From Candidatus Woesebacteria bacterium RIFCSPHIGHO2_01_FULL_39_32 (GTDB lineage Bacteria; Patescibacteriota; Microgenomatia; UBA8517): a stretch of DNA of 64,000 nucleotides. Positions within the stretch are counted from its first letter, which is position 1, and each line of letters starts with the position of its first letter. Below the pieces are notes generated by a model. That model saw only the letters and a list, made by a program, of their open reading frames with translations, searched no databases and was not told where the DNA came from. The stretch is taken from NCBI GenBank assembly GCA_001792345.1, contig MGGJ01000004.1:74090-138089 (forward strand), in the 5' to 3' direction. Below are positions 33,575-55,926 of this stretch, one piece after another. The translations under genes were made by a program, and so were the position numbers.

Positions 33575-33637
33575 AGTCATTTACTTTCCTCTATCCACCC
33601 AATTGCCAAGGAAATTACACAGGGATATAATTTGATT

Positions 33638-41696: not shown

Positions 41697-41711
41697 TTAA
41701 TTTAAGAACCC

Positions 41712-41728
41712 GCGGAGGAAATGGTTTC
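41712..41728 (+). repeat. Repeat A copy 1 (GCGGAGGAAATGGTTTC)
   Basis: Between convergent genes 40725..41696 and 41729..42097. Confidence 0.85.
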
Positions 41729-42097
41729 CTATTTAGAGCTTTTTATTTGACGAACTTTATCGACCAAAAGGCCCACAAAGAAAAGCAATATGAGTGTGGC
41801 TGCATAACTAATAAGTACTACCCAAAATAAATTCTTAGAATGTGTAGCCCATGAATAATAACTCTCGGGAACTATAAAACTTAGGAAATCTACTAACAGT
41901 TTCCCTGGAATAGACAGCAAAATAATAATAGCTAGAGATATTGGAGCACAGATTACAAATATTCCACCGCTGCACTCATTAAGTAGCGGAACCAACATCG
42001 TTGCAAAACCTAAAAGAATCAAAATAATATATATCACAGGTAAACGATACCTGTACTTTAGTCCAAAAAATTTCTTAAAGAATTTCTTAATCTCCAT
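41729..42097 (-). CDS. Hypothetical 4-TM membrane protein
   Basis: 122 aa hydrophobic ORF. Confidence 0.4.
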   Translation of the reverse strand: MEIKKFFKKFFGLKYRYRLPVIYIILILLGFATMLVPLLNECSGGIFVICAPISLAIIILLSIPGKLLVDFLSFIVPESYYSWATHSKNLFWVVLISYAATLILLFFVGLLVDKVRQIKSSK

Positions 42098-42153
42098 ATA
42101 TAAGTAATATTATCACCATGTCTTGTCGAAAATGAAGGAAAACCTAGAAACTG

Positions 42154-42173
42154 TGGAATAAATGGTTTCTTAA
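42154..42173 (+). repeat. Repeat A copy 2 (degenerate: TGGAATAAATGGTTTCTTAA)
   Basis: Overlaps stop codon of RelE-like gene. Confidence 0.6.
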
Positions 42174-42434
42174 TCAATATACTTCATCATGACTCCCGAT
42201 TCTGTTAAAAAGAATCCTATTTTCTTCGATTGTAAAAATAATTCTAATATCGCTTGTTATTGAAATAGACCAGTTATTTTCCCCGGACAACTTATGAAGC
42301 CGTAACGATGGGTGTTTAGGATTGGTTGATAGAAGTTCAATTTGATGTCTAAGCTTAATTTTTAATTTAGGATTATTCTTGACTATTTTCTTTAAATTCC
42401 TATCAAAAGTTCTTGAGAAATAAACTTCGTACAT
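42174..42434 (-). CDS. Type II toxin, RelE/ParE superfamily
   Basis: 86 aa; ...LHKLSGENNWSISITSDIRIIFTIEENRILFNRIGSHDEVY matches RelE/ParE C-terminal consensus. Confidence 0.7.
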   Translation of the reverse strand: MYEVYFSRTFDRNLKKIVKNNPKLKIKLRHQIELLSTNPKHPSLRLHKLSGENNWSISITSDIRIIFTIEENRILFNRIGSHDEVY

Positions 42435-42465
42435 CTACTAAAATTATATAATAAATTACTCTACC

Positions 42466-42699
42466 CTAAATTGAGTCGAAGTATTTTTTTATATCCTTTT
42501 TTGTCTTTAGTGTAATAGCTTTTCCTTCTTTTATTTCTTTCCTGGTTTCCTCTGCCCACAAATCGTATTTACTTTGAGATATAACCTTTCTCAAGGAATC
42601 ACGGACAAGGTCGCTAAAAGAAGCATAAAAGCCTCCTCTTACAAGGGTTTCAGCTTGATTTTTCAATTTTTCGGGTAAAGATACATTTATTGTAACCAT
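42466..42699 (-). CDS. Ribbon-helix-helix antitoxin, ParD/CopG-like
   Basis: MVTINVSLPEKLKNQAETLVRGGFYASFSDLVRDSLRKV matches ParD family; start set at internal Met of ORF 42466..42714; 31 bp upstream of toxin gene. Confidence 0.65.
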   Translation of the reverse strand: MVTINVSLPEKLKNQAETLVRGGFYASFSDLVRDSLRKVISQSKYDLWAEETRKEIKEGKAITLKTKKDIKKYFDSI

Positions 42700-42753
42700 A
42701 CAACAATAATACAATCTTCGTACAATAAGTCAATATATAAAATTACTTAAGTT

Positions 42754-42773
42754 GCGGAGGAAATGGGTTTCTA
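42754..42773 (+). repeat. Repeat A copy 3 (GCGGAGGAAATGGGTTTCTA)
   Basis: Overlaps stop of peptidase gene; one-base insertion. Confidence 0.8.
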
Positions 42774-43394
42774 ATTGTTGTTAAACAAACCTTCAAAATT
42801 AAAATCTACAAACTTTTTATTTCTCTCGTCATACAATTTCGTTTCATTCTCTTTAAGCTTTAAAATATTAAGTCCCTTTTGCTCTGCAAATTTTTCGACT
42901 ATTTCTATTAACTCTTCATTACAATAATTAGAGTTATTAGTGTGGACAATCACTATAGTTTCACTGTCAGGAAATATACCTTCAATAAAGTCGATGGTCT
43001 TTCTGTCGCTTGTTTCATAAAAATATGGAGCCATAAGCATTGCACCGGCACTGTCACCAAGAATAACTATATCTTTCTTAAGAACACCGAAATCAAATCT
43101 TTTCCTTTGAAGGCCATCTTTTAAAGGAATAGTATCACCGCCGCAAAGAAAAATAAGATCGTAAATTCGCCAATTAATATCTTTAGTTTTATTCCCAACA
43201 ATATCTACTGTTTCTCCAAATTGAGGAATTATATGCTTATCGTAATAATGATTAGGCTTAGCCATTGTTACAAAACAGGTCTTTTTCCCTTTGGCAATTA
43301 GTTTCTTGATCGTTTTGGAGTATTCGTAGAGATAAGATTTTTCAAAACCATTAGGTTCATTTTTATTTAGCCCACCCCGAAATATAAGTTTCAT
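42771..43394 (-). CDS. Peptidase S51-like (dipeptidase E / cyanophycinase family)
   Basis: 207 aa; IFLCGGDT...IVILGDSAGAML matches S51 nucleophile-Ser region. Confidence 0.55.
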   Translation of the reverse strand: MKLIFRGGLNKNEPNGFEKSYLYEYSKTIKKLIAKGKKTCFVTMAKPNHYYDKHIIPQFGETVDIVGNKTKDINWRIYDLIFLCGGDTIPLKDGLQRKRFDFGVLKKDIVILGDSAGAMLMAPYFYETSDRKTIDFIEGIFPDSETIVIVHTNNSNYCNEELIEIVEKFAEQKGLNILKLKENETKLYDERNKKFVDFNFEGLFNNN

Positions 43395-43432
43395 AATCGT
43401 AGTATATCAATTTGGAGAATTTTCCAGAAGCC

Positions 43433-43449
43433 GCGGAGGAGATTGTTTC
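43433..43449 (+). repeat. Repeat A copy 4 (GCGGAGGAGATTGTTTC)
   Basis: In divergent intergenic region. Confidence 0.7.
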
Positions 43450-43481
43450 GGATTATCCTTATCAAGTGTTAAAATCGAAAT

Positions 43482-43751
43482 ATGGATAAATTACATAAAC
43501 TGGAGGAAAAAATAGAGAAAATTGAATCCAGAAATAGAAAGGTCGAAAACGATAAAGCTTGGGAAACAAGTTATGCAAGAAGGTTCTTACTATTCTTTTT
43601 TACTTATGTGTCAATCGGTCTTTATCTCAATGTAATTCAAATCAAAGACCCATGGCTTAATGCAATAGTTCCATCAATAGGATTCTTCCTTTCGACTCTC
43701 ACTCTCCCCTTCTTCAAATCTACTTGGCTAAAGAAAAGAAATAAAAGATAA
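43482..43751 (+). CDS. Small 2-TM membrane protein with N-terminal coiled-coil (paralog 1)
   Basis: 89 aa; ~80% aa identity to 52260..52532. Confidence 0.5.
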   Translation: MDKLHKLEEKIEKIESRNRKVENDKAWETSYARRFLLFFFTYVSIGLYLNVIQIKDPWLNAIVPSIGFFLSTLTLPFFKSTWLKKRNKR

Positions 43752-43759
43752 CTTTGGCC

Positions 43760-43776
43760 GCGGAGGAAATGGTTTC
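43760..43776 (+). repeat. Repeat A copy 5 (GCGGAGGAAATGGTTTC)
   Basis: 9 bp after stop of paralog 1. Confidence 0.85.
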
Positions 43777-43797
43777 GGTTTCTTATATACTAAGTTA

Positions 43798-44082
43798 ATG
43801 AATAAATATTTGCGTTATTTATTTGTCCTGATATTTATTTTCTCTCTCTATCACTTTTTGAGAGATTTACTACAGACATTTAGCGTCGATAATTTCTTTA
43901 TAAACATTCTTCACAGACCCCACATCTGGTGTAGTCCGTATTGCAATTATGTAACCTATCCCCTGGACACGCTTGGAATTGTAGGCAGTTTTATCGTGTT
44001 AAGAAGAAACCGCGTGGGAATTCTGGGTGTGCTTATTTTTATATCCTTACCTCTTTGGTCGCTTGCTGTATTATTACCTTAG
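43798..44082 (+). CDS. Small 3-TM membrane protein
   Basis: 94 aa hydrophobic ORF. Confidence 0.4.
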   Translation: MNKYLRYLFVLIFIFSLYHFLRDLLQTFSVDNFFINILHRPHIWCSPYCNYVTYPLDTLGIVGSFIVLRRNRVGILGVLIFISLPLWSLAVLLP

Positions 44083-44098
44083 AAAATTTTTTTAACCA

Positions 44099-44115
44099 GC
44101 GGAGAAAATGGTTTC
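44099..44115 (+). repeat. Repeat A copy 6 (GCGGAGAAAATGGTTTC)
   Basis: 17 bp after preceding stop; followed by TATAAT 13 nt before next ATG. Confidence 0.75.
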
Positions 44116-44155
44116 TTCTTTATAATTATATTTAAAATGCTTATAATATTTGTAA

Positions 44156-44710
44156 ATGTTTCAAGAAAATTCGGCCGAACGTCGTCCTAAATTTTCCGCA
44201 TCTGTAGGTGTTATTCCTTTATATGAAAGTCCAGATGGATCAAAAGGTGTGGTTTTGGGCTTAAGAATTGAGGATGGCTTATGGACTCCTATAGCGGGCG
44301 GTCTCGAAAATCAGGAGTATGACTTGGAAGCTTTATGCAGAGAATGGCAAGAAGAAACAGGATTAAATCCAGAAGAATCTCTACAATTATTTCCCATTCC
44401 ACTTACAACAACTTCGCCGCAGCCAGGAAAAACTTCTGTCGGCATAACATATATCGGAAAATATACTGGCCCAGCGTTACCTTTAAGAGCTTGGGGCGAT
44501 GAAATAGAAGTACTTGAATCATTCGCGCCAGAAAGATTAAAAAATCTATTAGACAATCCTGAAGGCCACCTTTTTCGTCCTGACTTAAATTTAGGTAACT
44601 TAACAGCGATCCTGACTCTTTTATCACCAAATGACGGGGTGCAAACAATATTATTGAATAGAGCACGACAATCCACCCAAAGATTCATTAAAGAGGATAC
44701 ATATTTCTAA
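44156..44710 (+). CDS. NUDIX-family hydrolase (divergent)
   Basis: 184 aa; GGLENQEYDLEALCREWQEETGL Nudix-box-like. Confidence 0.55.
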   Translation: MFQENSAERRPKFSASVGVIPLYESPDGSKGVVLGLRIEDGLWTPIAGGLENQEYDLEALCREWQEETGLNPEESLQLFPIPLTTTSPQPGKTSVGITYIGKYTGPALPLRAWGDEIEVLESFAPERLKNLLDNPEGHLFRPDLNLGNLTAILTLLSPNDGVQTILLNRARQSTQRFIKEDTYF

Positions 44711-44715
44711 AAACC

Positions 44716-44732
44716 GCGAAGGAAATGGTTTC
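44716..44732 (+). repeat. Repeat A copy 7 (GCGAAGGAAATGGTTTC)
   Basis: 6 bp after NUDIX stop; followed 19 bp later by repeat B copy 1. Confidence 0.8.
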
Positions 44733-44751
44733 TTAAGATTTTTTATTCGAA

Positions 44752-44770
44752 GCTAATTTGAAGACAAATT
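44752..44770 (+). repeat. Repeat B copy 1 (GCTAATTTGAAGACAAATT)
   Basis: Just 3' of minus-strand nitrilase gene. Confidence 0.85.
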
Positions 44771-44772
44771 AT

Positions 44773-45552
44773 TTATTTTATTTCTAGTTTCTTTTTTGGC
44801 TGCCACCAGGAATCAAACTCTCGAGCCTTTGTAACCTCATCCAAATCCAACTCTTCATAAAGAATCTCTTTGTGATTAATGCTCCCTTCCTTTAAAACCC
44901 CTCTTATAGGACTTACAATCAATGACCTTCCGAAAGAGTTTGTCGCTATATTTAAATTACCCGATACTAAAATAAAAGACCTGCTCGCAAAAGCACCATA
45001 TACATATAGCGCTTTTACATACTCTTGAGTGTTCAATTCCTTCCAGCCAATCGACCATGTAGGAATACAAATAATTTCGGCGCCTTGATTGTTAAATTTC
45101 TCATATAAAAAATGTGAGAACTTGTTGAAGCCATCCTTGCAAATAAGCATCCCTAATTTTCCTATTTCTGTTTTTTCGACCTCTAAAGTATTCCCGGCAA
45201 CAACTCCAATGTTTTCTATTTCAGGTTTTGCTGGGTAAATTTTTCTGTGCGATACAACGGATTTTCCTTCAGGAGAAATAATATAGCCTTGGTTATAATA
45301 CTTGCCGTCTTTTTTAGTGTAAAAACTTGTCGCGAGAAAAACACTGTGTTTCTTTGCAACTTCTATGAGTTTCGGCAAATAATCTATTTCTTTTTCCTTC
45401 AACTCCCCAACTTCTCCGACGGCAGTTTCTGGAGCAACTATTAATTTTGCACCTGCCCACGAAGCCTGTGAAACCATTTCGTTAAGTTTCTTAAAGGAAG
45501 CACTAGATTCTTCGGGAGCGTCGTATTGTAGAACTGCAACTTTAACTTTCAT
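44773..45552 (-). CDS. Carbon-nitrogen hydrolase (nitrilase superfamily)
   Basis: 259 aa; E (APET), K (HRKIY), C (LICKDG) catalytic triad spacing. Confidence 0.8.
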   Translation of the reverse strand: MKVKVAVLQYDAPEESSASFKKLNEMVSQASWAGAKLIVAPETAVGEVGELKEKEIDYLPKLIEVAKKHSVFLATSFYTKKDGKYYNQGYIISPEGKSVVSHRKIYPAKPEIENIGVVAGNTLEVEKTEIGKLGMLICKDGFNKFSHFLYEKFNNQGAEIICIPTWSIGWKELNTQEYVKALYVYGAFASRSFILVSGNLNIATNSFGRSLIVSPIRGVLKEGSINHKEILYEELDLDEVTKAREFDSWWQPKKKLEIK

Positions 45553-45572
45553 TAACCAAATTCTACTCCGGA

Positions 45573-45591
45573 GCTAATTTGAAGACAAATT
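45573..45591 (+). repeat. Repeat B copy 2
   Basis: 20 bp upstream of nitrilase start. Confidence 0.85.
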
Positions 45592-45595
45592 TATC

Positions 45596-45904
45596 CTAAG
45601 CTGACTGAATTTCAAACTTAGTTTTTTTAGGATCGAAGGCTTTAATATTTTTCTTTACGTCCAATATTTCAATCCCTAAAATTTTACCCTTAGCATCTTC
45701 GTCCACTAAAACAGTATCCGTTACTTTTCTGGTTCGGCTATATTTTCCTTTTGCTAATTCCAAATAAACTGCGTCTTCTTTTTTATCGTATTGTATTTTC
45801 ATAATTATTTTTTCAGGATTATCAATTGTTTCTGTTACAGTCTTTTGAGAAATATTTCTCCTTTTAAGTTGCTTTATGGCATGTCCAGAAAAGTTGACGG
45901 GCAT
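45596..45904 (-). CDS. Fused DUF4258-like (short N-terminal) / DUF2283-like (C-terminal) small protein; TA-related
   Basis: 102 aa; C-terminal MKIQYDKKEDAVYLELAKG...KILGIEIL matches DUF2283; N-terminal FSGHAIKQLKRRNIS resembles DUF4258. Confidence 0.5.
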   Translation of the reverse strand: MPVNFSGHAIKQLKRRNISQKTVTETIDNPEKIIMKIQYDKKEDAVYLELAKGKYSRTRKVTDTVLVDEDAKGKILGIEILDVKKNIKAFDPKKTKFEIQSA

Positions 45905-45926
45905 AAAAACATTATAAAATAATCTC

Positions 45927-45949
45927 GGAGTTAATTTGAAAACAAACTT
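45927..45949 (+). repeat. Repeat B copy 3 (degenerate)
   Basis: GGAGTTAATTTGAAAACAAACTT, 3 mismatches. Confidence 0.6.
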
Positions 45950-45967
45950 TAAACATCGTATTTGAAA

Positions 45968-46552
45968 TTAGTAACCCCAGGCCTTCCTCTTCCCTGCTTT
46001 CATAATATTCCACGAACCATCCTGTTGGCGCATCATTACATAATAAGACGGTCTTTTAAAGCTCGAGTGTTCTTCATCACCAAGTCTAATTTCTAATAAC
46101 TTTGGTACATATGGCTCCGGAACTTTACCTAATATATCTGTTGAAATTGCTTTAACTTCCTTCGCTCTAAGAAAATCCGTGGAGATATTATAGTCAAGCT
46201 TCTCAACCACACCTTTTGAATCAAACCATAACTGTGCGCCAGTTAACTCATACTCACTTTCCCTCTCTAATAATACTGCTGCTGCCTTCGAATCGTCCAA
46301 CTCCCCCAATCCAAAGTAACCCTTTTGTTCGATTAAGACATCTGCGTGTGTTCCCTTTGGAAATAGTCCAGAAGCTACTTTATCTTTAGAAATTCGAGCA
46401 AGACAAGAAATATAACCCGGAAACTTACCAATGACAGCGCCTCGACCTTCACGAATTAATCCTTGCCACTCACCTTCAGTTAATAAACGGTTATAAAAAG
46501 GTCTGGGGGCAACATCTATTCCCGCTTGGATTTCCTCTGAATCTAAAACCAT
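45968..46552 (-). CDS. Hypothetical protein (194 aa)
   Basis: ORF only. Confidence 0.45.
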   Translation of the reverse strand: MVLDSEEIQAGIDVAPRPFYNRLLTEGEWQGLIREGRGAVIGKFPGYISCLARISKDKVASGLFPKGTHADVLIEQKGYFGLGELDDSKAAAVLLERESEYELTGAQLWFDSKGVVEKLDYNISTDFLRAKEVKAISTDILGKVPEPYVPKLLEIRLGDEEHSSFKRPSYYVMMRQQDGSWNIMKAGKRKAWGY

Positions 46553-46578
46553 TTCAACCTTATTATACCTCTCTAGAA

Positions 46579-46597
46579 GCTAATTTGAAGACAAATT
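46579..46597 (+). repeat. Repeat B copy 4
   Basis: 27 bp upstream of start of 45968..46552. Confidence 0.85.
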
Positions 46598-46675
46598 ATT
46601 TTAGTTTTGTCATAATAATACATAAGGTGTTACTTTATTTTGAGCTAAAATCCAATACCTGTGTTAAATTAACAT

Positions 46676-47287
46676 ATGTTTTTATTGAAGAAGTATTATT
46701 GGGAAGTCAAAGAAACAAAAAGTAAAGGAAGGGGTGTTTTCGCAAGGAAACCAATTTCGGCAGGCACACTTATTGGCGATTACGTTGGAAAATTGGTTCA
46801 CTTGAAAGATGTAGATTTTGATAAAGAAAAAGGAAATCTGTATCTGATGTATTACAATGACACAACAGGTATTTACCCCAGCTTAAGAAAACCGGGCATT
46901 CATCTTCTAAATCATTCGTGTTCTCCTAATTGCTGGATTTTTAAATTTAAAAGACACACTTTGGTTTTTGCATTAAAGAATATTATGAATGGAGACGAGT
47001 TGACAATTTCTTACCTCCTTCCTCCAGGTAAGCTTTGTACGAACTGCACACATAAATGCTTCTGCGAAAGCAAGGTTTGTACAAAATCGATGCATTTAAC
47101 GGAAGGTGGATATAAAAAATGGCAGGATTTTCAAGATAAAGAAGAAAGGAAAGGAAAATATAGAAAAATTATAAATGAAAACGCATTAAAACTGTTGGCA
47201 AAATATCCGAAATCTATTTCCAAAAGTTATATTGTAAAAATTAAAAATTTAGAGATTACACAAAACCTTTCCATCTCGCTAATTTGA
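46676..47287 (+). CDS. SET-domain protein (lysine methyltransferase-like)
   Basis: 203 aa; LLNHSCSPNC SET signature and post-SET Cys cluster; its TGA stop lies inside repeat B copy 5. Confidence 0.75.
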   Translation: MFLLKKYYWEVKETKSKGRGVFARKPISAGTLIGDYVGKLVHLKDVDFDKEKGNLYLMYYNDTTGIYPSLRKPGIHLLNHSCSPNCWIFKFKRHTLVFALKNIMNGDELTISYLLPPGKLCTNCTHKCFCESKVCTKSMHLTEGGYKKWQDFQDKEERKGKYRKIINENALKLLAKYPKSISKSYIVKIKNLEITQNLSISLI

Positions 47288-47296
47288 AGACAAATT
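47278..47296 (+). repeat. Repeat B copy 5
   Basis: Overlaps stop codon of SET gene. Confidence 0.85.
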
Positions 47297-47308
47297 TATT
47301 TTGTTAAA

Positions 47309-48160
47309 CTAAACAGCAAGAATCACCAGTCCCAACATTAACAAAAATATACCGATTTTCTGCTCTTTTGCTAACTTTTCCTTCAGAAAAAGTAGCGCCA
47401 AGAATATTGTCACAACAGGCGCCGCAGCAACAACTGGCGCAACGATAGATGCATAAGTACTATTTACACCCAAAGAGTAACCAAGATAACCCATACTACT
47501 TAGTATTCCCAAAAGTGCAGCTAGTTTATAAGAATAATTAGTAATAGATAAACTTTTTTCTTTATATAAAGTAAGTATAGTTAAAAACAACACACCCGAG
47601 ATGGTTGTGAGAATAATTATCTCTAACCAACCAATTTTAACGGTCATATCACCTATTAAGATAAATGACGTACCCCAAAAGAACATTGCTAACAGACCAT
47701 ATGGAACTGATCTATCAGTGATTACTAGCTTAAGATTTTTGAAATTTTTTAAATTTATTGAAACCAATATAGTCCCGACAACAACAAGTACAACAGAACC
47801 AACTTGAATTGGCAAAAGAATTTCAGAAAGAAATAATATTGAAAAAAGAATTATTATCACCGAATAAGAAGAAGCTATCGGAGACAAAACCGATAGATTA
47901 CCAACTTGCGTCCCTTTGAAAAAAGAAAGACCCCCTAAAGTAGTTATTATTCCCGCAATAAAACCTACGACAAACTCTCCGGTACTTATTTCAAAAAGGT
48001 TTGTTGTTCGACCGGAAACAAACGAAATACATAAAAGGTAGAAAAGCATGAAGATGGCATTCCACAACATTCCTTTTAAGAATCCTGCAGATTTAGAAAG
48101 AAATACTATAACATAATCGGCGACTCCAAAACCCACAAGTCCTATCAATGCATAAACCAT
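47309..48160 (-). CDS. EamA/DMT-superfamily transporter
   Basis: 283 aa, 10 TM, duplicated EamA-like halves. Confidence 0.7.
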   Translation of the reverse strand: MVYALIGLVGFGVADYVIVFLSKSAGFLKGMLWNAIFMLFYLLCISFVSGRTTNLFEISTGEFVVGFIAGIITTLGGLSFFKGTQVGNLSVLSPIASSYSVIIILFSILFLSEILLPIQVGSVVLVVVGTILVSINLKNFKNLKLVITDRSVPYGLLAMFFWGTSFILIGDMTVKIGWLEIIILTTISGVLFLTILTLYKEKSLSITNYSYKLAALLGILSSMGYLGYSLGVNSTYASIVAPVVAAAPVVTIFLALLFLKEKLAKEQKIGIFLLMLGLVILAV

Positions 48161-48179
48161 ATATTAATATTACCCCGAA

Positions 48180-48198
48180 GCTAATTTGAAGACAAATT
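48180..48198 (+). repeat. Repeat B copy 6
   Basis: 19 bp upstream of start of 47309..48160. Confidence 0.85.
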
Positions 48199-48246
48199 AT
48201 TAACAGACTGTTCTTACTAACAATTAAATATTGATATAATCAAATC

Positions 48247-49110
48247 ATGTCGGGAGTAATAGCAGCAATTTATTCCTCATTTTTTCTCGCATTATCTCAA
48301 GCTTCTTTGAAAAAAAGCTACAGGGAACTTTCTCCATCTGTTGCATTTTTCTTTGACACCCTTTTTGGTTTAGCTCTTTGGGTACCTCTAGCATTATTCT
48401 TCGGCATCAATCTGATATTCTTCAAAGAGGTCCTTTTATTTGCAGTTCTATCAGCAGTTTTATCCGAAGCATTATATTTTTATGCGCTATCTAAAGGACA
48501 GTTAAGCGTAACCACAATTCTTATTGGTAGCTACCCGATTTATACTATTTTGTTTTCTTATTTGATCAATAGAGAGATATTAACTCCGTTACAAGCATTA
48601 TTTATCGGAATAACAATCTTCGGAACACTAATTTCATACCTGCCTTCAAAATTAAACAAAGATGAATTGAAAAAAAGCGGCGTTCTGATATGGCCAATAA
48701 TAGCGGCGGTTGCAGTTGGTTTATCTGATACCTTGTCCAAGAAAATTATAAACAAAACTGAAGATTTTACGTTTCTTTTTGCACTAGCCCTAGTCCAAAT
48801 ACCGGTTTCGCTGACATACCTAAAACTTGAAAGGCAAAATATTATAAAAGAGCTAAAAGTAGTAAAAGCAAAAGCATATGATTATAAAAATGCAATAGCC
48901 GGATCACTGTTTAATATTATCGGCACTGGGCTTCTGTGGATCGCCTTTTCAAAGACTCTTGCTTCGATTGCTTCTCCGATAACTGCTACAAGCGGGGTTT
49001 TGGTAATTATAATTGCACTACTTTTTCTTGACGAGAAAATATCATTAAAACAAATAGCCGGAATATTTTTAGTCATTCTGGGTATAATTGGAATTGCGAT
49101 TCTAGTTTAA
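48247..49110 (+). CDS. EamA/DMT-superfamily transporter
   Basis: 287 aa, 10 TM. Confidence 0.7.
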   Translation: MSGVIAAIYSSFFLALSQASLKKSYRELSPSVAFFFDTLFGLALWVPLALFFGINLIFFKEVLLFAVLSAVLSEALYFYALSKGQLSVTTILIGSYPIYTILFSYLINREILTPLQALFIGITIFGTLISYLPSKLNKDELKKSGVLIWPIIAAVAVGLSDTLSKKIINKTEDFTFLFALALVQIPVSLTYLKLERQNIIKELKVVKAKAYDYKNAIAGSLFNIIGTGLLWIAFSKTLASIASPITATSGVLVIIIALLFLDEKISLKQIAGIFLVILGIIGIAILV

Positions 49111-49113
49111 AAT

Positions 49114-49584
49114 ATGCAGAAAAATCAAATTGTTTCATATTCAGGAATAGAGGGTCTACTTAAAGTAACCCAAAATTCTCTCAGCGCAGAAGGAGAGCTT
49201 CTAATTTTTGAAACTAGTTATGCATCACTAAACGACATGTTTACTAAAGATCAGGCGGAAGAAATCAGAAATGAATTTGTAAACAAGAAAATTAAAATTA
49301 GAGAGCTGACAAATCATGCTTATCACGAAACATACACTCATGTTAGGGATTTTCATGAAAAAGTAATGAATATTCGTTACATAAACCCAAACAGGCTTCA
49401 AATTAAAGTAGAAACGCTTATATATAATAATGTCGTGGCATTATACGAGCCCAAAAAAGACGGTTTCTGCCTTGAAATTTACAGCAAAGAGTTGGCCGAT
49501 CAACAAAGACAACTATTTGAATTTATTTGGAAACAAGCAGATAGACCAATAATCGGTAAGGGTGGTAGGACTTCTATTTTCTAG
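49114..49584 (+). CDS. Hypothetical protein (156 aa)
   Basis: 3 nt after transporter stop, likely co-transcribed. Confidence 0.45.
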   Translation: MQKNQIVSYSGIEGLLKVTQNSLSAEGELLIFETSYASLNDMFTKDQAEEIRNEFVNKKIKIRELTNHAYHETYTHVRDFHEKVMNIRYINPNRLQIKVETLIYNNVVALYEPKKDGFCLEIYSKELADQQRQLFEFIWKQADRPIIGKGGRTSIF

Positions 49585-49586
49585 GA

Positions 49587-49605
49587 GCTAATTTGAAGAC
49601 AAATT
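49587..49605 (+). repeat. Repeat B copy 7
   Basis: Starts 2 nt after stop of 49114..49584. Confidence 0.85.
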
Positions 49606-49610
49606 ACCGA

Positions 49611-49985
49611 TTATAGGTAGTAAGCTACCTCTATCTTTATTCTGTCAGGATCTTCGAAATATACTGCATAGTACCCCTCTTCATATTCAGGAAAGGGTTT
49701 TGGTGTGTCGTATAAAGTAGGAATTTTATTAGGTTTAAGAAATTCGTTACAGAATTTATCAACATCTTCCTTGGAGTTTACCCTGAATGCTATATGGTTT
49801 AATCCAACTCTTTTTCTGTGGAAACCTTTAATAACGTATTTTCCCTCTGCCTGATCAAACCAGATGGTCGTTCCCCCATTCATAAAGGCAAATACCTTCT
49901 TCTCATTAACAATTTCCTTATAGTCTAAAAGGGTAAGGAGTTTGTTATAGAAATTATAAGATTTGTTTAAATCTGAAACGTACAA
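49611..49985 (-). CDS. VOC-family protein (glyoxalase/bleomycin-resistance/dioxygenase fold)
   Basis: 124 aa; GLNHIAFRV and paired betaalphabetabetabeta modules; TTG start in ORF track. Confidence 0.65.
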   Translation of the reverse strand: MYVSDLNKSYNFYNKLLTLLDYKEIVNEKKVFAFMNGGTTIWFDQAEGKYVIKGFHRKRVGLNHIAFRVNSKEDVDKFCNEFLKPNKIPTLYDTPKPFPEYEEGYYAVYFEDPDRIKIEVAYYL

Positions 49986-50031
49986 GTTGATATGTCCGAC
50001 TGTAGATTTTATAAAACTATTTTATCCCAGA

Positions 50032-50050
50032 GCTAATTCGAAGACAAATT
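50032..50050 (+). repeat. Repeat B copy 8 (GCTAATTCGAAGACAAATT)
   Basis: 1 mismatch. Confidence 0.75.
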
Positions 50051-50159
50051 GTTTCAGATTTTTGACACTGGTTAATTTTATCTATTCTCCTCAACCCCTA
50101 CCAGTCTTGGTTTCTTCACTTTCTCGTTTGAAATCTTATTGATGTCTCTGACATTTAGA

Positions 50160-50813
50160 CTACCTAGAAAGTCTTTCTAATAAACCATATTCAACATACC
50201 AAGGAAAAACTCCATCCTCAGGATAAATAAATTCGTGAGGACCAATCTCCATGGAAGGTTTTTTAAAAGAACGTACGCCTCGCGGCTCTCTTAATTGGTA
50301 CCCTGTTAATTGCCGTACGACTTCTATTTCTTCATCGGATAACCCAAGTGTTATGGTTTGCCTATCAAACTCTCTTGAAGAGTGTCTAATTGTGAGAGGA
50401 CTTCCGCGCAAATTAATAACTGTGCGTTTGTCATTTACTGTAATTCTATAACAATATTCAAGCACTGCCCTGAGCCGCGATTGCATAGGCTGAGCGTATT
50501 CTTCGGCTTTAACAATATCTTCAGTATTCACCACATGTACGCCATCGATGTCGCTTCCATTATTTGCTTCACCGTGCGCTATTGAACCATACACAAACAT
50601 GCCTCTATATTCCGGATTTATAGACATTTCTTCTAATACTAAACTTCCTAAGATACTTCTGACCGAATGTTGATCTTGCAAATCAAGAGCATCTGGGAGT
50701 TCTACATGAGTTAAAAATGATACATCAGGAATACGTATTTTATCCGGATATACAAAAAGTGGTTTTTCTGGAAGTATTCGTTTTTCTTGTCCTGATTCTT
50801 CGTCACCAACCAT
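50160..50813 (-). CDS. Nucleotidyltransferase-fold protein (minimal NTase, ANT/Lnu-like)
   Basis: 217 aa; YGSIAHGEANNGSDIDGVHVV fits hG[GS]x9-13DhD NTase motif. Confidence 0.5.
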   Translation of the reverse strand: MVGDEESGQEKRILPEKPLFVYPDKIRIPDVSFLTHVELPDALDLQDQHSVRSILGSLVLEEMSINPEYRGMFVYGSIAHGEANNGSDIDGVHVVNTEDIVKAEEYAQPMQSRLRAVLEYCYRITVNDKRTVINLRGSPLTIRHSSREFDRQTITLGLSDEEIEVVRQLTGYQLREPRGVRSFKKPSMEIGPHEFIYPEDGVFPWYVEYGLLERLSR

Positions 50814-50877
50814 ATTAATAAATCCAAAAGTAAAGATACATTAACGGAATTATACCAGCTTAGAATACTTAGAGAAA

Positions 50878-51363
50878 TTACCTTAGGGGAATTGAGAACC
50901 AGCGGGGAACTTTTTTCATATAGCCTGAATATTCTTTACCAAACTTCTTTTTTAGTTCGGGCTCTTCTTTGTAAATGATAACCAATTGAAAGAGGACAAC
51001 TGCAGCAAGAACATAAAAGAGAAGTAGTATGTGACCGAAAATCATAAAAACTCCTAAAAATGCCAGCAAGACGGCGGCGTACATGGGATTGCGACTATAT
51101 CCATAAAAGCCTTTGGAAATAAGTTTTTTTGGCGATTCGATAATAACTGGTGTGACTCTACCTGTTAATAAATGCTGGTGCATCGTATATAAAGTTGCCG
51201 AAAAACCAAAAAGAAAGAAAATAAATCCTAGGGTTCTTAGCAGACTGTTATCAAAAACTGGTAAATTGTAAATGACGTTGAGCCGAATTAAATATACAGG
51301 AACAACAAACCAAGCAAAGACCAAAATAAAAAGTCCGAGAAGTAATGTCAACGCACTTTTCAT
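50878..51363 (-). CDS. Isoprenylcysteine carboxyl methyltransferase (ICMT)/phospholipid methyltransferase family membrane protein
   Basis: 161 aa; GFYGYSRNPMYAAVLL motif, 4 TM. Confidence 0.7.
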   Translation of the reverse strand: MKSALTLLLGLFILVFAWFVVPVYLIRLNVIYNLPVFDNSLLRTLGFIFFLFGFSATLYTMHQHLLTGRVTPVIIESPKKLISKGFYGYSRNPMYAAVLLAFLGVFMIFGHILLLFYVLAAVVLFQLVIIYKEEPELKKKFGKEYSGYMKKVPRWFSIPLR

Positions 51364-51381
51364 TATAGTTATTATATCAAT

Positions 51382-52155
51382 TTAATTCCGCCTTTTGTGG
51401 AAGGATTTCTGATGTGCAAGGAACTTTTGAGCTTCAACCGATACTCTTTTCTTCTCCCTGTAATTAGATTTTTCAACAAAACGGTTAAATAATTTAAGTA
51501 CTTTTTCAAATCTCAGCTCTGCAATTTTAAGTCTTGAGAAATTATAGACAATGTAATCTCTGTACATATTTTTATCGGCCAAATTTATAAGTGGATGTTT
51601 TCTTCTTACTATCCTTATCATCGCGACCTCAACGTGTGGGTTTGGAATAAAGTCGTGTCGTCGAAAATTCCAAAAAATATCAATTTCAAACCATGGTTTT
51701 AATAATACCGATACCATTGAGTTCTTGTTGTCAAAAGGCATTCCAATAAATCTTCTTGCCGCTTCTTTTTGGATCACTATATAAGCTTCTAAAAAATTAT
51801 CATCGTCGGTTAATTTTCTTAAAACGCCGGAGGTTATATTGAAAGGAATGTTTGAAAAAACTTTGTAGGAGTAAGGCGGCATCCTGAAATTTAGAAAATC
51901 ACCTCGAATTAGTTCTAAGTTCTTTGCATTTTTATATTTTTCTTTTAGGTGAAAGTAAAGTTTTCTATCAAGTTCAATCGCGGTAACTCTTCCGGCAACT
52001 TTCAACAATTCTTGGGTAATAATTCCTCTACCGGGACCGATTTCGATAACTTTGTCATTTTTACCAAGAGAAGATTTCCGAATTAATTTAGCGATAAGCT
52101 TCGGATTGACAAGATTGTTCTGTGAGTAGAGCCTCCGCCTTTGTTTGTACAACAT
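51382..52155 (-). CDS. rRNA adenine N6-dimethyltransferase family (Erm/KsgA)
   Basis: 257 aa; YSQN..., VIEIGPGRG SAM motif, NIPFNITS motif IV; size and N-terminus more Erm-like than KsgA-like. Confidence 0.75.
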   Translation of the reverse strand: MLYKQRRRLYSQNNLVNPKLIAKLIRKSSLGKNDKVIEIGPGRGIITQELLKVAGRVTAIELDRKLYFHLKEKYKNAKNLELIRGDFLNFRMPPYSYKVFSNIPFNITSGVLRKLTDDDNFLEAYIVIQKEAARRFIGMPFDNKNSMVSVLLKPWFEIDIFWNFRRHDFIPNPHVEVAMIRIVRRKHPLINLADKNMYRDYIVYNFSRLKIAELRFEKVLKLFNRFVEKSNYREKKRVSVEAQKFLAHQKSFHKRRN

Positions 52156-52259
52156 AGCGGAGTCTCCTTATAATTATGGTTACCATATATTTTTCCTTCT
52201 AAAGCTAATCAGCTTTGTGTGTATTTTATCTCAAAGCCTTCTTGAAGTAAAATATAAAC

Positions 52260-52532
52260 ATGGATAAACTTCAAAAACTGGAGGAAAAAATTAGTAAAAT
52301 TGAAGCTAGGAACAGAAAAGTTGAAGCAGATAAATCTTGGGAGACGAGCTACACAAGAAGAGTTCTGCTTTTTGTTTTTACGTACATCTCAATTGGGCTT
52401 TATCTAAATGTGATTCAGGTTGAAAACCCTTGGCTTAATGCAATTGTTCCCTCAATCGGATTTTTGCTTTCAACTCTTACTCTTCCCTTCTTCAAAAACC
52501 TCTGGATGAAAAAACGAAACGGAAAAATTTAG
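52260..52532 (+). CDS. Small 2-TM membrane protein (paralog 2 of 43482..43751)
   Basis: 90 aa, ~80% identical to paralog 1. Confidence 0.5.
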   Translation: MDKLQKLEEKISKIEARNRKVEADKSWETSYTRRVLLFVFTYISIGLYLNVIQVENPWLNAIVPSIGFLLSTLTLPFFKNLWMKKRNGKI

Positions 52533-52537
52533 AGGCA

Positions 52538-52554
52538 GTAGAGGAAATGGTTTC
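52538..52554 (+). repeat. Repeat A copy 8 (GTAGAGGAAATGGTTTC)
   Basis: 6 bp after stop of paralog 2. Confidence 0.75.
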
Positions 52555-52635
52555 TTAATCCCCGTCTTAATTAATCTTGACAAACTTGTTAATAACATCT
52601 ACTGTTTTAATAGAACACTCATTTATTTCAAAAAT

Positions 52636-53526
52636 ATGGCCAAAAAGGCTAAGTCTGCAAACTTCTTTAACAAAATAATTGTTCTGGCATTGGCAGTAAT
52701 ATCCTTAGCTTTGATAACCGTTGCGACAACACAAAAACAAACCAATTACGACATAAGAACAGGGGCTACTTACAATCCAAAAATTGACCCCGATGATTTT
52801 ACTACAAACATAACAAATAAATACTTTACGCTTCCTGTCGGGAAAAAAATGGTTTATGAGGGCGATACCGAGGAGGGACGCGAAAGAATAGAAATAACAA
52901 TTCCAGGCGATAAGAAGAAAATTATGGGAGTTGAGACCCTTTTGTATCGCGACAAGGCCTGGCTCGACTCAAACGGAGACGGGAAATGGAGTAAGAAGGA
53001 GATGATTGAGGACACGCGAGATTATCTAGCCCAAAACAAGAAAACGGGTGATGTTTGGTATTTCGGCGAGGAAGTAAATAACTATGAGGATGGAGAACTT
53101 ATTGACCACGACGGTTCCTGGCTGGCGGGAGATGATAGATACCCAGGCGCATTACCTGGCATTTGGGTTAAGCAAAATCCAAAAGTAGGAGAGGTATACT
53201 TGCAGGAATTTTATAAGGGAAAAGCGGAAGATACGGTCAAAGTTTTATCAACGCATGCAACAGTAAAAACCTCGCTTGGCAAATTTAAAGACTGTTTGAG
53301 AACAAAGGACTTCACTCCGTTAGAACCCGATGCTCTGGAAAACAAATACTACTGTCCCAACGCAGTGATTAAAAATATCGGCTCAACTGTACTTATAAAA
53401 GATTTAGCAAATGATGAACAGCTGGAACTTTCTAAATTAACTGTTGGAAAAACTGACGATGACAAAGATGATGAAGACGATGACAAAGATAATGACCGTG
53501 ATGGCGATGAGGAAGAAGATGATTAG
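52636..53526 (+). CDS. Secreted protein with poly-acidic (D/E-rich) C-terminal tail
   Basis: 296 aa; N-terminal signal anchor; C-terminus DDDKDDEDDDKDNDRDGDEEEDD. Confidence 0.5.
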   Translation: MAKKAKSANFFNKIIVLALAVISLALITVATTQKQTNYDIRTGATYNPKIDPDDFTTNITNKYFTLPVGKKMVYEGDTEEGRERIEITIPGDKKKIMGVETLLYRDKAWLDSNGDGKWSKKEMIEDTRDYLAQNKKTGDVWYFGEEVNNYEDGELIDHDGSWLAGDDRYPGALPGIWVKQNPKVGEVYLQEFYKGKAEDTVKVLSTHATVKTSLGKFKDCLRTKDFTPLEPDALENKYYCPNAVIKNIGSTVLIKDLANDEQLELSKLTVGKTDDDKDDEDDDKDNDRDGDEEEDD

Positions 53527-53528
53527 GA

Positions 53529-53547
53529 GCTAATTTGAAGACAAATT
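53529..53547 (+). repeat. Repeat B copy 9
   Basis: Begins 3 nt after stop of 52636..53526. Confidence 0.85.
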
Positions 53548-53551
53548 ATTT

Positions 53552-53860
53552 TTAAATAAGCTTACTACGATGGGTTAGAATATTTCCCCATGTCATCATT
53601 TTTTCAGCCCAATCAATGGAATCTTTCGGTCCCTCTAGTCCTTCGCTTTCAAGTTGTTTATAGTGTCTGAGAAAATCTTTCAAAGTATCTTTAAAGGGAG
53701 TTCTAAATGAACTTGAATCAAGAGTTTCAATGTAATTACTCGTATTCGAAATAAAAGTTTGTATCCTTTTTCTCTTACCTAAGTAATCATCGGCTGCCCA
53801 ATTACCAATCCTGTTTAAATTCATCGCAATATCTAAAATTTTTTGTTTATTACCTGTCAT
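53552..53860 (-). CDS. Hypothetical small protein (102 aa), downstream member of overlapping gene pair
   Basis: 4-nt overlap with upstream gene. Confidence 0.4.
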   Translation of the reverse strand: MTGNKQKILDIAMNLNRIGNWAADDYLGKRKRIQTFISNTSNYIETLDSSSFRTPFKDTLKDFLRHYKQLESEGLEGPKDSIDWAEKMMTWGNILTHRSKLI

Positions 53861-54180
53861 AAAAGTAAGCTTCTGACAATCTTATCAAACCTTTTTCTAA
53901 TTTGTTTTGACATTATATCGCGGCTTGGATTATCTTGATTGGGACGCAAATTAATCATGGAGTTGTAATCAATTTCTTTCGTTTCCAAGTCCAATCCTCC
54001 ACCCCATAGATTAATTTTGTGTGAACCATCGTCCAGAAGTTCTTTTTCTTCATCAACGTGTCTATCTTCTCCCGCAGATATCATTTCGCGCTCAATGTCA
54101 ACGACAATCTTAATATATCCTTTAAAGTGTTCCGCAATTTTATTCAACTCGGACCCATTGGCCTTTCTTCTAATAATCAT
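53857..54180 (-). CDS. Hypothetical small protein (107 aa), upstream member of overlapping pair (possible TA module)
   Basis: ORF, overlap architecture. Confidence 0.4.
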   Translation of the reverse strand: MIIRRKANGSELNKIAEHFKGYIKIVVDIEREMISAGEDRHVDEEKELLDDGSHKINLWGGGLDLETKEIDYNSMINLRPNQDNPSRDIMSKQIRKRFDKIVRSLLL

Positions 54181-54212
54181 ACCTGGCTCATTTTACCACG
54201 ATTTTAAGCAAA

Positions 54213-54231
54213 GCTAATTTGAAGACAAATT
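54213..54231 (+). repeat. Repeat B copy 10
   Basis: 33 bp upstream of start of 53857..54180. Confidence 0.85.
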
Positions 54232-54245: not shown

Positions 54246-55106
54246 TTACAAAGATATCAACACTAACCCACCAACTATAGCTAAAATACCAACCATCTTA
54301 TTTCGGTCAATTTTTTCTTTTAAAAATACTTTAGCCAAAAGTACTGAGACCAAAGCGAATGCGCTACCGATCGGAGCAACTATAGAAGCTTGTGTTCCTG
54401 ACACTCCAAATGAATAGCTGAAAAATCCACCAATATCGAAAAGTCCAATTAGTAAAAGTAATTTTAGAGGAAACTTTGTTGATTTAGGAATAAACACACT
54501 TTTGGAAAATAATATATAACCTACTAAAAGTAAAAGTACGAAAAATCTGAAAATAAATGCAGGTAAAAACCATCCCAGCTCTTTGGTGGCAAAAACTAAA
54601 AGGAAAAGAGAGATTCCCCACCCGAGCATTGCCATAACTCCTTCCTTAACACCGACCAAGAAGTTTACTTTTTTTGACTTGACAAGATCCGAAATGTTTA
54701 CTGAAAGCATAACTATTCCAACGACAATCATCCCGATTGCCAAAACCTGTGAAGTACTTAAAGACTCTTTTAAAAATACCACTCCCAAAAGCGCAACCAC
54801 CAATCCCCATGCTGCGCCAACCGGACCAACCAGTGAAACTTCCGCTTTTTCCAAGCCTCTATAAAAAGAAAGGTAAGCAACCACTTGTAATACTGCTACA
54901 ACAACCAATAGAGAAACGTTTTGGGAAACTAAAGTAAAAGTGAAGGAGTTAAAATTTACAAGAAAAAAAAGCAGTCCAACAAGAAATCCAAAAAACTGCA
55001 TCCAAAAAAGTGTTAAAACATTTCCTAATTTACGTGAAGCTATAGCGGCTAAAAATATAGCTGTCCCCCAGAAAACCATCGATAAAAAACCTGCGATAAT
55101 TCCCAT
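54246..55106 (-). CDS. EamA/DMT-superfamily transporter
   Basis: 286 aa, 10 TM. Confidence 0.7.
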   Translation of the reverse strand: MGIIAGFLSMVFWGTAIFLAAIASRKLGNVLTLFWMQFFGFLVGLLFFLVNFNSFTFTLVSQNVSLLVVVAVLQVVAYLSFYRGLEKAEVSLVGPVGAAWGLVVALLGVVFLKESLSTSQVLAIGMIVVGIVMLSVNISDLVKSKKVNFLVGVKEGVMAMLGWGISLFLLVFATKELGWFLPAFIFRFFVLLLLVGYILFSKSVFIPKSTKFPLKLLLLIGLFDIGGFFSYSFGVSGTQASIVAPIGSAFALVSVLLAKVFLKEKIDRNKMVGILAIVGGLVLISL

Positions 55107-55139: not shown

Positions 55140-55481
55140 TCATTTTGTAACTATTTCATTCGTAGGGATAATTCGGCTTCTTGTTTTCTTATTTTTTGGG
55201 AAACCTGTTGGGAGGAGGTATCCTTGCCAGTCGCCCTCGCCGATTGAAAGTTCCAAATGAAGTTGATCTACTAATTTAGGTTCGTCTTTGACATTGTAAA
55301 TTCTGTATTCGCCTTTTGCCAGCTTTTGATCTGTTTTGTGGTTGCGGTGGGTTGCAACGAGTATCTCTCCAATTGTTTTTGTATATATCCAAACAAAAGT
55401 AATCTTTCCAAGTTTCAAAACCTTTACATCATTTCTGGTCTCAACCAAAGAATACTTTCCTTTTTTCAGAAGTTTAATCAT
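55140..55481 (-). CDS. Hypothetical protein (113 aa)
   Basis: ORF only. Confidence 0.4.
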   Translation of the reverse strand: MIKLLKKGKYSLVETRNDVKVLKLGKITFVWIYTKTIGEILVATHRNHKTDQKLAKGEYRIYNVKDEPKLVDQLHLELSIGEGDWQGYLLPTGFPKNKKTRSRIIPTNEIVTK

Positions 55482-55500
55482 GCTTAATTATATATCCCAC

Positions 55501-55926
55501 TCAAGGATTTTTCTTTACAAATACTAAGCCTGAGGCAATTGCTTGCACAAGAATTGCTATACTCCAGGTAAGAATCATCACAAATGATACCTGAAAGCTA
55601 CTATACGAAATAAGCATTCCTGGAATTGTAATCAACCAGTAGGAGGCGGCAAATTGGCAACATCTCCAAAAGACGTCTCTTTCTTTAAAAAGATGCTTAG
55701 TCTTATCCCACACCCAAGCCAATATTATTCCAACGACAAATGGGTGAATAAAAATATAAGACATTAATGGGTCACTCCAGGGTCTGAAAAGGGCTGGGTT
55801 TTGATATTCGGCAGCAAGACTCGGAAAAAGGACACCCCAGAGCCAGTTCAAAACTATTCCGACTACCAACATCGCAACTCCGGCCAAGATGCCTGTCGTG
55901 ACAATTTTTCTATTCATATTTCTCAC
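55501..55926 (-). CDS. Hypothetical 4-TM membrane protein
   Basis: 141 aa. Confidence 0.4.
   Translation of the reverse strand: MRNMNRKIVTTGILAGVAMLVVGIVLNWLWGVLFPSLAAEYQNPALFRPWSDPLMSYIFIHPFVVGIILAWVWDKTKHLFKERDVFWRCCQFAASYWLITIPGMLISYSSFQVSFVMILTWSIAILVQAIASGLVFVKKNP

Follow-up and report, generated by a model that had tools for sequence, protein, structure and literature searches.

Two anciently diverged small membrane-protein genes of a Woesebacteria chromosome as probable cassettes of an integron-like array bounded by same-strand repeats

The 64-kb stretch of Candidatus Woesebacteria bacterium RIFCSPHIGHO2_01_FULL_39_32 analyzed here (the whole stretch is hereafter called the window) carries two related genes for small membrane proteins, both on the + strand: copy 1, an open reading frame (ORF) of 89 amino acids at 43482..43751, and copy 2, an ORF of 90 amino acids at 52260..52532. 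The product of copy 2 has the same length as, and is 100% identical in alignment to, protein P0003 of this organism (NCBI A2715_03605). Both genes lie in a 12.5-kb array (41710..54231, + strand) whose gene boundaries are marked by two short repeats, first A (sub-array 41710-44732) and then B (sub-array 44752-54231). As argued below, the two genes are probably independent cassettes in a chromosomal, integron-like array bounded by same-strand repeats. Repeat A would then follow both of them because it is the boundary element of the array, not because it was copied with the gene.

The array comprises 22 genes of unrelated accessory functions on both strands. They include a ParE/YafQ toxin gene with an RHH antitoxin gene and genes for an S51 peptidase, a NUDIX hydrolase, a nitrilase-family protein (CN_hydrolase), a DUF4258/DUF2283 protein, a SET-domain protein, three EamA transporters, a glyoxalase, a nucleotidyltransferase, a PEMT-like methyltransferase, an rRNA adenine dimethylase, and a DUF5674 protein. 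The rest of the window is ordinary chromosome, with genes for MurJ, HrcA, UvrD, an AddA-like helicase-nuclease, RmuC, and MetRS. Two independent assemblies carry the array with 100% identity and a third with 99.9%; it is real, stable, and chromosomal.

Repeat A is the 19-mer CCGCGGAGGAAATGGTTTC, with the 14-nt core GAGGAAATGGTTTC, and has eight copies in the window, whereas repeat B, GCTAATTTGAAGACAAATT, has 10 copies between 44752 and 54231, compared with 0.13 expected. Matches to the 14-mer of A number nine (0.77 expected) and matches to the 19-mer six (0.01 expected). Counts so far above expectation imply that the occurrence of repeat A after both small-protein genes is not due to chance. 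All 18 copies of A and B have + strand orientation and lie either between genes or across a stop codon. Irrespective of whether the neighboring genes are tandem, convergent, or divergent, one of the two repeats stands at almost every gene boundary from 41.7 to 54.2 kb, and neither repeat occurs in the other 51 kb of the window.

The first copy of repeat A (41710..41728, 19/19 positions matching) lies between the convergent genes for 323-aa and 122-aa proteins and is followed by a degenerate copy at 42151..42169 (core GAATAAATGGTTTC). The third (42752..42770) abuts the stop codon of the S51 peptidase gene, which is on the - strand, and the fourth (43431..43449) lies upstream of small-protein copy 1. 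Copy 5 (43758..43776, 19/19) starts 6 nt past the copy-1 stop codon, copy 6 (44097..44115) follows an ORF for a 94-aa membrane protein, and copy 7 (44714..44732) follows the NUDIX gene, with the first B 19 nt downstream in what we call the A|B junction. The eighth copy (52536..52554), 3 nt past the copy-2 stop codon, matches at 16/19 positions and has an exact core. Repeat B begins at 44752..44770 with the sequence given above, recurs at 45573..45591 upstream of the nitrilase-family gene, and is degenerate (three mismatches) at 45930..45948. Its copies at 46579..46597 and 47278..47296 form the left and right borders of the SET cassette, the latter holding the SET stop codon TGA (47285-47287), and that at 48180..48198 lies between two divergent EamA genes. 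The glyoxalase cassette is bordered by copies at 49587..49605 on the left and 50032..50050 (one mismatch) on the right. A further boundary repeat is found at 53529..53547, and the last recognizable one at 54213..54231.

A role of repeat A as ribosome-binding site and start codon was considered and rejected: its ATG opens ORFs of only 3-10 codons, which show no conservation. After copy 1, the ATG in repeat A, preceded by GGAGGAA, opens a nine-codon mini-ORF (43769-43798) whose TAA overlaps the start codon of the following gene, at 43798 (TAATG, 43796-43800). Other A copies have no such overlap, and this one is probably a coincidence.

The first-pass annotation had described the small-protein genes as a pair of 89- and 90-aa ORFs with about 80% identity and had proposed that a unit consisting of the gene and repeat A was duplicated or transposed. 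The similarity of the proteins holds, with 71 of 89 residues identical (80%; E 5e-55). The nucleotide alignment that the annotation had suggested yields a single ungapped block of 272 nt (43470-43741 versus 52248-52519) with 76% identity. On the left, the homology ends at a TAAAAT hexamer 6 nt before each ATG and, on the right, two to three codons short of the stop codon (at about codon 87), that is, before repeat A. The 3-9 nt between stop codon and repeat are unrelated in the two copies. The upstream leaders, which had been called similar, are so for the last 20 nt (60% identity), but the next 100 nt are at background level (32%). Repeat A does follow each gene, and the copy at 52536 is indeed the only A within the B territory (44752-54231), as the annotation had stated; what it had overlooked is the additional A upstream of copy 1 and the presence of A and B between nearly all genes of the region, regardless of gene or strand. 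It had also named an outcome that would count against duplication, namely unrelated flanks apart from a chance 17-mer. The flanks are unrelated, but repeat A occurs far above chance in the window.

The substitution pattern shows how old the divergence is. Between copies 1 and 2, the nonsynonymous divergence (dN) is 0.137 and the synonymous divergence (dS) is 2.13, which is saturated (dN/dS 0.06), and third codon positions are 53% identical. The 14-nt repeat-A cores that follow the two genes are nevertheless identical at 14/14 positions, as are those beside unrelated genes. Because dS is saturated and the core is identical, repeat A must have been kept up independently and not inherited with the gene. 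In a neighbor-joining tree, the two copies are not sisters; several Woesebacteria homologues from other samples are approximately 80% identical to both copies, as close as the copies are to each other. A recent segmental duplication would be recognized by homology across gene and repeat, a low dS, and sister copies, none of which is seen here. Judged from these comparisons, the two genes are anciently diverged, functional paralogues under strong purifying selection. Repeat A also adjoins unrelated genes in the window, namely the 122-aa ORF, the ParE/RHH pair, the S51 peptidase gene, the 94-aa ORF, and the NUDIX gene. The cassette idea of the annotation thus survives in part: both genes behave as cassettes and A is a genuine boundary element not explained by chance, but the copying of a [gene + A] unit is not supported.

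Each small-protein gene seems to have its own promoter. An extended -10-like box, TGTTAAAAT (43467..43475, + strand), lies 6 nt before the ATG of copy 1, with no Shine-Dalgarno sequence, and a -10-like box TAAAAT (52248..52253, + strand), the putative promoter of copy 2, lies 6 nt before its ATG. A -10 box 6-7 nt before the ATG, again without a Shine-Dalgarno sequence, is kept in Microgenomates orthologues (L007, L010, L011, L016, and L041; numbers of this form denote loci in other genomes and contigs). The position of the box together with the lack of a Shine-Dalgarno sequence suggests that the mRNAs are leaderless, each gene having its own -10 promoter. The 104-nt spacer upstream of copy 2 contains GCTAATCAG (52204-52212), of which the first six to seven bases equal repeat B before the sequence diverges. 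This stretch between the rRNA methyltransferase gene and copy 2 may represent a B site that is truncated or hybrid.

Evidence that the units between repeats behave as cassettes comes from blastn comparison of the array with other contigs, in which matches ran from motif to motif. The S51 peptidase cassette (42758-43435, A to A), whose left and right ends lie at the third and fourth copies of A, matches L004 (10776-11453). From B to B, the nitrilase-family cassette (44741-45588) has matches in L132 and L123, the SET cassette (46626-47292) in L190, L194, and L123, and the glyoxalase cassette (49587-50055) in L129 (18-482). For the EamA cassette (47278-48168, B to B), the match in L111 and L196 begins at the first base of B. 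Cassettes are ordered differently from genome to genome: nitrilase, DUF2283, a 194-aa ORF, and SET follow one another in the window, whereas in L123, SET is directly followed by nitrilase, and L004 has the small gene, a 154-aa ORF, S51, and SET. The orientation of each cassette relative to the motifs is constant across genomes. Pairs of contigs show the junctions at base resolution: identity between L106 and L157 is 100% as far as the final base of B, beyond which they are unrelated, and L109 and L190 are unrelated until B-3 and 97% identical afterwards. Internal ends of matches with at least 90% identity fell within the motif zone in 32 of 93 cases, compared with 4.8 ± 2.1 for random placement (maximum 13 in 2000 trials). 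The units thus behave as cassettes and have been reassorted between genomes, with junctions at A and B.

Most cassettes hold a single gene. Among 200 intermotif intervals, 113 contained one ORF and 56 contained two. The cassette ORFs, in 150 clusters, represent 137 Pfam families, led by NUDIX, GNAT, HAD, S51, EamA, glyoxalase, HIT, PIN, and HicA/CopG.

Both motifs are present in three other Woesebacteria (39_61, 38_9, and GW2011_GWA1_39_21), and a scan of metagenome contigs with the 18-mer of B returned at least 118 contigs; the figures for strand, order, and spacing that follow are for the matches listed. At up to three mismatches, none of the 118 contigs had B on both strands. At four mismatches, 290 B sites were on the majority strand and six on the other, the corresponding numbers for A being 87 and 10. 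In 388 A/B pairs, A was 5' of B in 365 and the order was reversed in 23; the median motif spacing was 665 nt. The largest array seen, L123, has 11 copies of A followed by six of B within 13 kb. The window (44714/44752), L004, L184, and several metagenome contigs share the A|B junction, whose spacer varies between about 10 and 25 nt (typically 17-20).

The first-pass annotation had also suggested searching other genomes for the small gene followed by repeat A. Relatives with motifs near the gene do exist, but the arrangement is variable and the motifs are absent outside the clade. In relatives, the small gene occurs between A and B at the A|B junction (L010, L102, L130, and L166), after an A with no motif downstream (L007), or ahead of a 154-aa ORF that is followed by A (L004). 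In L184, an rRNA methyltransferase gene of the type that neighbors copy 2 directly precedes A and B, without a small gene between. At 76 other loci of the small gene in bacteria of the Candidate Phyla Radiation (CPR) and DPANN archaea, neither A nor B was found above chance-level matches, and recurrence of 13-mers revealed no comparable repeat arrays around the gene in other CPR/DPANN lineages.

The closest known systems are integron cassette arrays, especially sedentary chromosomal integrons and clusters of attC sites lacking integrase (CALIN; Cury et al. 2016, PMC4889954). The array resembles them in its tandem, mostly single-gene cassettes with one repeat per boundary, all repeats in one orientation and homogeneous within the array; in having most ORFs co-oriented, the repeat abutting or overlapping stop codons, and an order that varies between genomes; and in a content rich in toxin-antitoxin, GNAT, NUDIX, glyoxalase, and unknown small proteins. 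As in CALIN, no integrase lies beside the array and, as in integrons, the long form of A described below would form an imperfect hairpin that is better on one strand. Two hallmarks of such arrays are present: tandem cassettes with same-strand sites (18/18 in the window and 0/118 contigs of mixed strand among the matches listed) and the same cassette in different orders and contexts with junctions at the sites. A third is lacking, as no adjacent intI (tyrosine recombinase) gene was found in window scans or related loci.

The sites themselves differ from those of integrons. Canonical attC sites are about 57-141 nt long, whereas the conserved element here is 19-35 nt, and several A- or B-bearing intergenic regions are only 21-32 nt long. 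Between 41.5 and 54.5 kb, there were no complementary RYYYAAC...GTTRRRY (R''/R') pairs at a spacing of 40-130 nt, compared with 1.1 in shuffled sequences. Unlike integrons, the array has two repeat families in two consecutive sub-arrays, and its cassettes have their own -10 boxes and are apparently leaderless, instead of depending on a common Pc promoter. The host is a CPR bacterium with a very small genome, and for this class Cury et al. (PMC4889954) reported no complete integron. Full-text literature searches gave no description of integrons or cassette arrays in Woesebacteria, Microgenomates, or CPR generally. Repetitive extragenic palindromic (REP) sequences and bacterial interspersed mosaic elements share with A and B that they are short, partly palindromic intergenic repeats beside stop codons. 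REPs, however, occur genome-wide in both orientations and are linked to the RAYT transposase, whereas the window has A and B on a single strand in one array, where they delimit shuffled units, and nowhere in its other 51 kb.

Repeat B also appears to serve the expression of the cassettes. The cassette ORFs are co-oriented in 81% of cases, on the strand opposite to the motif as written. Viewed in that gene direction, stop codons fall at -20 to +10 nt relative to the motif, and start codons follow 10-40 nt past it. The - strand of repeat B reads AAT TTG TCT TCA AAT TAG, that is, N L S S N stop. Because ORFs in the metagenome contigs (loci L090-L207) extend into B, NLSSN, LSSN, or LNSN forms the C-terminus of many unrelated cassette proteins. 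The stop codons TAA and TGA are likewise provided by B on the + strand. Its reverse complement contains a -35-like TTGTCT that, where a gene follows, is 16-17 nt from a cassette-borne TAAAAT or TAGAAT; for the B upstream of the nitrilase-family gene, the distance to TAGAAT is 17 nt. Such combinations of TTGTCT with TAGAAT or TAAAAT are found on the - strand at 45560-45588, 50019-50047, and 54201-54228, each for the cassette on the left. In 4 of the 10 window copies, B has no gene to drive, since a + strand gene ends on its left; there, the -10 box is missing and the B core is unchanged. B thus seems to donate half a promoter, the -35 box, to the left-hand cassette gene. In the proposed scheme, B would be regulatory in addition to being a boundary, with the left-hand gene receiving TTGTCT and the right-hand gene a stop codon (the NLSSN* tail). 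No intrinsic terminators were called at A or B, and neither terminator-like nor promoter-like sites were enriched in the array.

How might the cassettes move? From the polarity of the sites, the core-like geometry of B, and the hairpin of the long-form A, we infer site-specific recombination at A and B. Cassettes would be gained, lost, and reordered by recombination within these repeats, most likely by a site-specific recombinase encoded elsewhere, and repeat A would be held constant by function or homogenization. B could be a core-type site, TAATTT-GAAGAC-AAATTA, whose asymmetric spacer would fix the polarity. A minority of A copies in other contigs (e.g., L011 = L004, ~10745-10790) are long forms with a GC-rich inner hairpin, ..GAAGCCGCGCCTGCCCGCCTCTGGCGGGGAGGAAATGGGTTC.., whereas all eight A copies of the window are short forms without it. 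Folded as single-stranded DNA, the long form gives a 16-bp imperfect hairpin with internal mismatches (-14.7 kcal/mol, z -3.9), compared with -8.6 kcal/mol (z -0.75) for its complement. Of 81 A segments, 61 fold better on the + strand. These predictions suggest that long-form A is an attC-like imperfect hairpin on one strand only.

Several observations weigh against an integron-like array with cassettes moved at A and B. Of the 93 homology ends mentioned above, 61 lie outside recognizable motifs. The array is invariant over three assemblies of the species, with no turnover visible within the species, and neither pairs differing by insertion or deletion of a single cassette nor circular (circularly permuted) cassette contigs were found among the contigs, which are mostly 1-6 kb long. 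The short A copies of the window fold no better than shuffled sequences, and a column-pair scan gave no consistent covarying stem. A recombinase, whether Phage_integrase or another family, was found neither by a Pfam scan of the larger ORFs (about 50) of the window nor among precomputed Pfam calls for the 5.4 kb to the contig end, and a regular expression for catalytic motifs, run on all related loci, returned just one implausible match of 145 aa. Ordinary homologous recombination between conserved regulatory repeats of 19-35 nt could give a similar mosaic. Three unannotated ORFs to the right of the array (55140-56756) were inspected as candidates and are not recombinase-like.

We offer more tentatively, as somewhat doubtful, a wider proposal: that a Woesebacteria subclade possesses an undescribed integron-like gene-capture platform with polar A and B site families and a recombinase encoded elsewhere, of which the small genes would be mobile cassettes. 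In such a platform, the full form of A would act as an attC-like single-strand hairpin and B as a core-type site from which cassettes also obtain a -35 box and a stop codon; insertion may take place at the empty A|B junction. Were this so, mobile cassettes could help to explain the 60-80% identity of the small-protein family across CPR bacteria and DPANN archaea.

The strongest competitor, although an unlikely one, holds that A and B are purely regulatory elements of co-regulated accessory genes, B being a -35 box or operator and A a terminator-like hairpin, and that the mosaic arose by homologous recombination or transformation-driven replacement. The spacing of TTGTCT to TAAAAT or TAGAAT upstream of left-hand genes, the peak of start codons 10-40 nt past the motif, and the co-orientation of 81% of the ORFs are what such elements would produce. 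B is, moreover, a 6-4-6/7-4-7 palindrome of the kind bound by dimeric regulators, the homology at junctions can span about B-14 to B+35, and no recombinase lies nearby. A purely regulatory role does not account, however, for the B core being equally kept in the 4 of 10 window copies that lack both a gene to drive and the -10 box, or for motifs that stay on one strand even at convergent and divergent gene pairs. The motifs are also confined to one array and are unused at the other genes of the 64 kb, the strict order of A then B and the empty A|B junction have no regulatory rationale, and promoter- and terminator-like sites are not enriched in the array overall.

As a sub-model of site-specific recombination, a housekeeping Xer-type recombinase could move the cassettes by acting on dif-like sites, as in the pdif modules of Acinetobacter and in integrative mobile elements exploiting Xer (IMEX) at dif; this would explain the absence of a dedicated integrase, but we regard it as improbable. 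Known pdif sites consist of 28 bp (XerC site, spacer, and XerD site), alternate in orientation around each module, are found mostly on plasmids, and depend on the host XerC/D. As in these systems, short sites bound accessory modules (often toxin-antitoxin) with no dedicated recombinase in or beside the modules, and the array is the single chromosomal one in the species. By inspection of its sequence, B looks like a core site of two inverted 6-bp arms separated by an asymmetric 6-bp spacer (TAATTT GAAGAC AAATTA; 6-6-6 geometry). Unlike pdif sites, all sites here are direct and chromosomal and belong to two types, and repeat A has no arm-spacer-arm geometry. GC skew follows the gene strand and shows no switch, the sign of a replication terminus, at the array.

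Least probable of all, and largely refuted, is a duplication or transposition that carried the small gene together with repeat A over 8.8 kb within the genome. Two paralogues in one 9-kb region, an A a few bases after each, and a second A isolated in B territory would fit it, but the homology ends before A, an unchanged A core stands beside a saturated dS, the tree does not join the copies as sisters, many unrelated genes in this and other genomes are flanked by A, orthologues have A upstream, B downstream, or no motif, and L184 has the rRNA methyltransferase gene followed by A-B with no small gene between.

The array is of greater interest than the old paralogues that it contains. CPR genomes are tiny, and a repeat-bounded, shuffled chromosomal array would be a concrete mechanism for the turnover of their accessory genes; if true, it would represent a second, independently built solution to the problem that integrons solve. 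For practical purposes, the two motifs of at most 19 nt are simple search patterns, which retrieve more than 100 environmental contigs. They also explain the common NLSSN* tail on many unrelated ORFs in these genomes, and they caution annotators not to take repeat-flanked paralogues for recent duplications.

The small protein belongs to a widespread family, with at least 899 database matches at E <= 1e-3, 331 loci in GTDB species genomes, and 945 clusters at 50% identity. The family spans Microgenomates and other CPR bacteria as well as Aenigm-, Micr-, Woese-, Iain-, Nanohalo-, Undin-, and Altiarchaeota. An alignment of 25 sequences has 27 invariant columns and the motif RN..VE.DK.WE.S..R...FTY...Y...W.NA..P..F..STLTL..K..W. 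Both window ORFs are full-length members, with homology over about 90 aa, both the RN..VE.DK.WE.S and STLTL..K..W parts of the motif, and 60-80% identity to homologues in both domains of life. Unlike the rest of the CPR/DPANN family, they are two copies at one locus inside a repeat-bounded array, a context seen only in the Woesebacteria subclade. The AlphaFold2 model of copy 1 (pLDDT 87) has helices at residues 2-29, 31-51, and 62-88, which are predicted to form an N-terminal amphipathic helix (2-29) followed by a transmembrane hairpin (31-51 and 62-88). By its sequence, the protein is a strongly constrained small membrane protein with two putative transmembrane segments. Pfam, NCBIfam, and PADLOC gave no match for it, and a Foldseek search of the model against the PDB returned nothing below E = 3. 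The partner domains of longer family members (Ham1, GNAT, DFP, flavokinase, and HTH) were considered as a lead and set aside, as they are unrelated and probably stem from gene-call fusions. CPR and DPANN members (loci L012-L089) are 60-70% identical, which is unusually high across domains and therefore suggests lateral transfer between CPR and DPANN. Some GTDB records that carry the family are labeled "Gammaproteobacteria" or "Methanosarcinales"; these are probably mislabeled bins.

Other families are also present in several copies in and around the array. There are three EamA paralogues (47309-48160, 48247-49110, and 54246-55106) and two PEMT/ICMT-like methyltransferase paralogues (50878-51363 and 56750-57313), so the small-protein gene is not the sole multicopy family in the array region. 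To the right of the last B, the segment 54232-63008 holds further accessory-type genes (small unknown ORFs, a Zeta toxin, a ParE/Phd pair, and a 460-aa PMT_2-like protein) with no A or B at their boundaries. This segment may be what is left of an older stretch of the array, now decayed, or an island unrelated to it.

No tRNA genes were found in the window, and Rfam gave no match, either across the window at the gathering threshold or across the array at E <= 1. As to a viral origin, repeat B is absent from IMG/VR, and A has four single matches there, which are probably due to chance. A block running from RmuC to MetRS and a family-2 glycosyltransferase precedes the repeat-bearing variable region both in the window (25985-32371) and in Woesebacteria 38_9 (L007, 398-6470), and the array may for this reason occupy a conserved chromosomal hotspot. 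Just left of the array, at 33632-38854, lies an ORF with a TTG start codon for a 1740-aa alpha-2-macroglobulin-like protein (MG2, A2M, and bMG10). About 4.2-4.8 kb outside the window on its right, close to where the 146-kb contig ends, a LAGLIDADG homing-endonuclease ORF (L212, 14184-14825) adjoins a gene for a PD-(D/E)XK nuclease.

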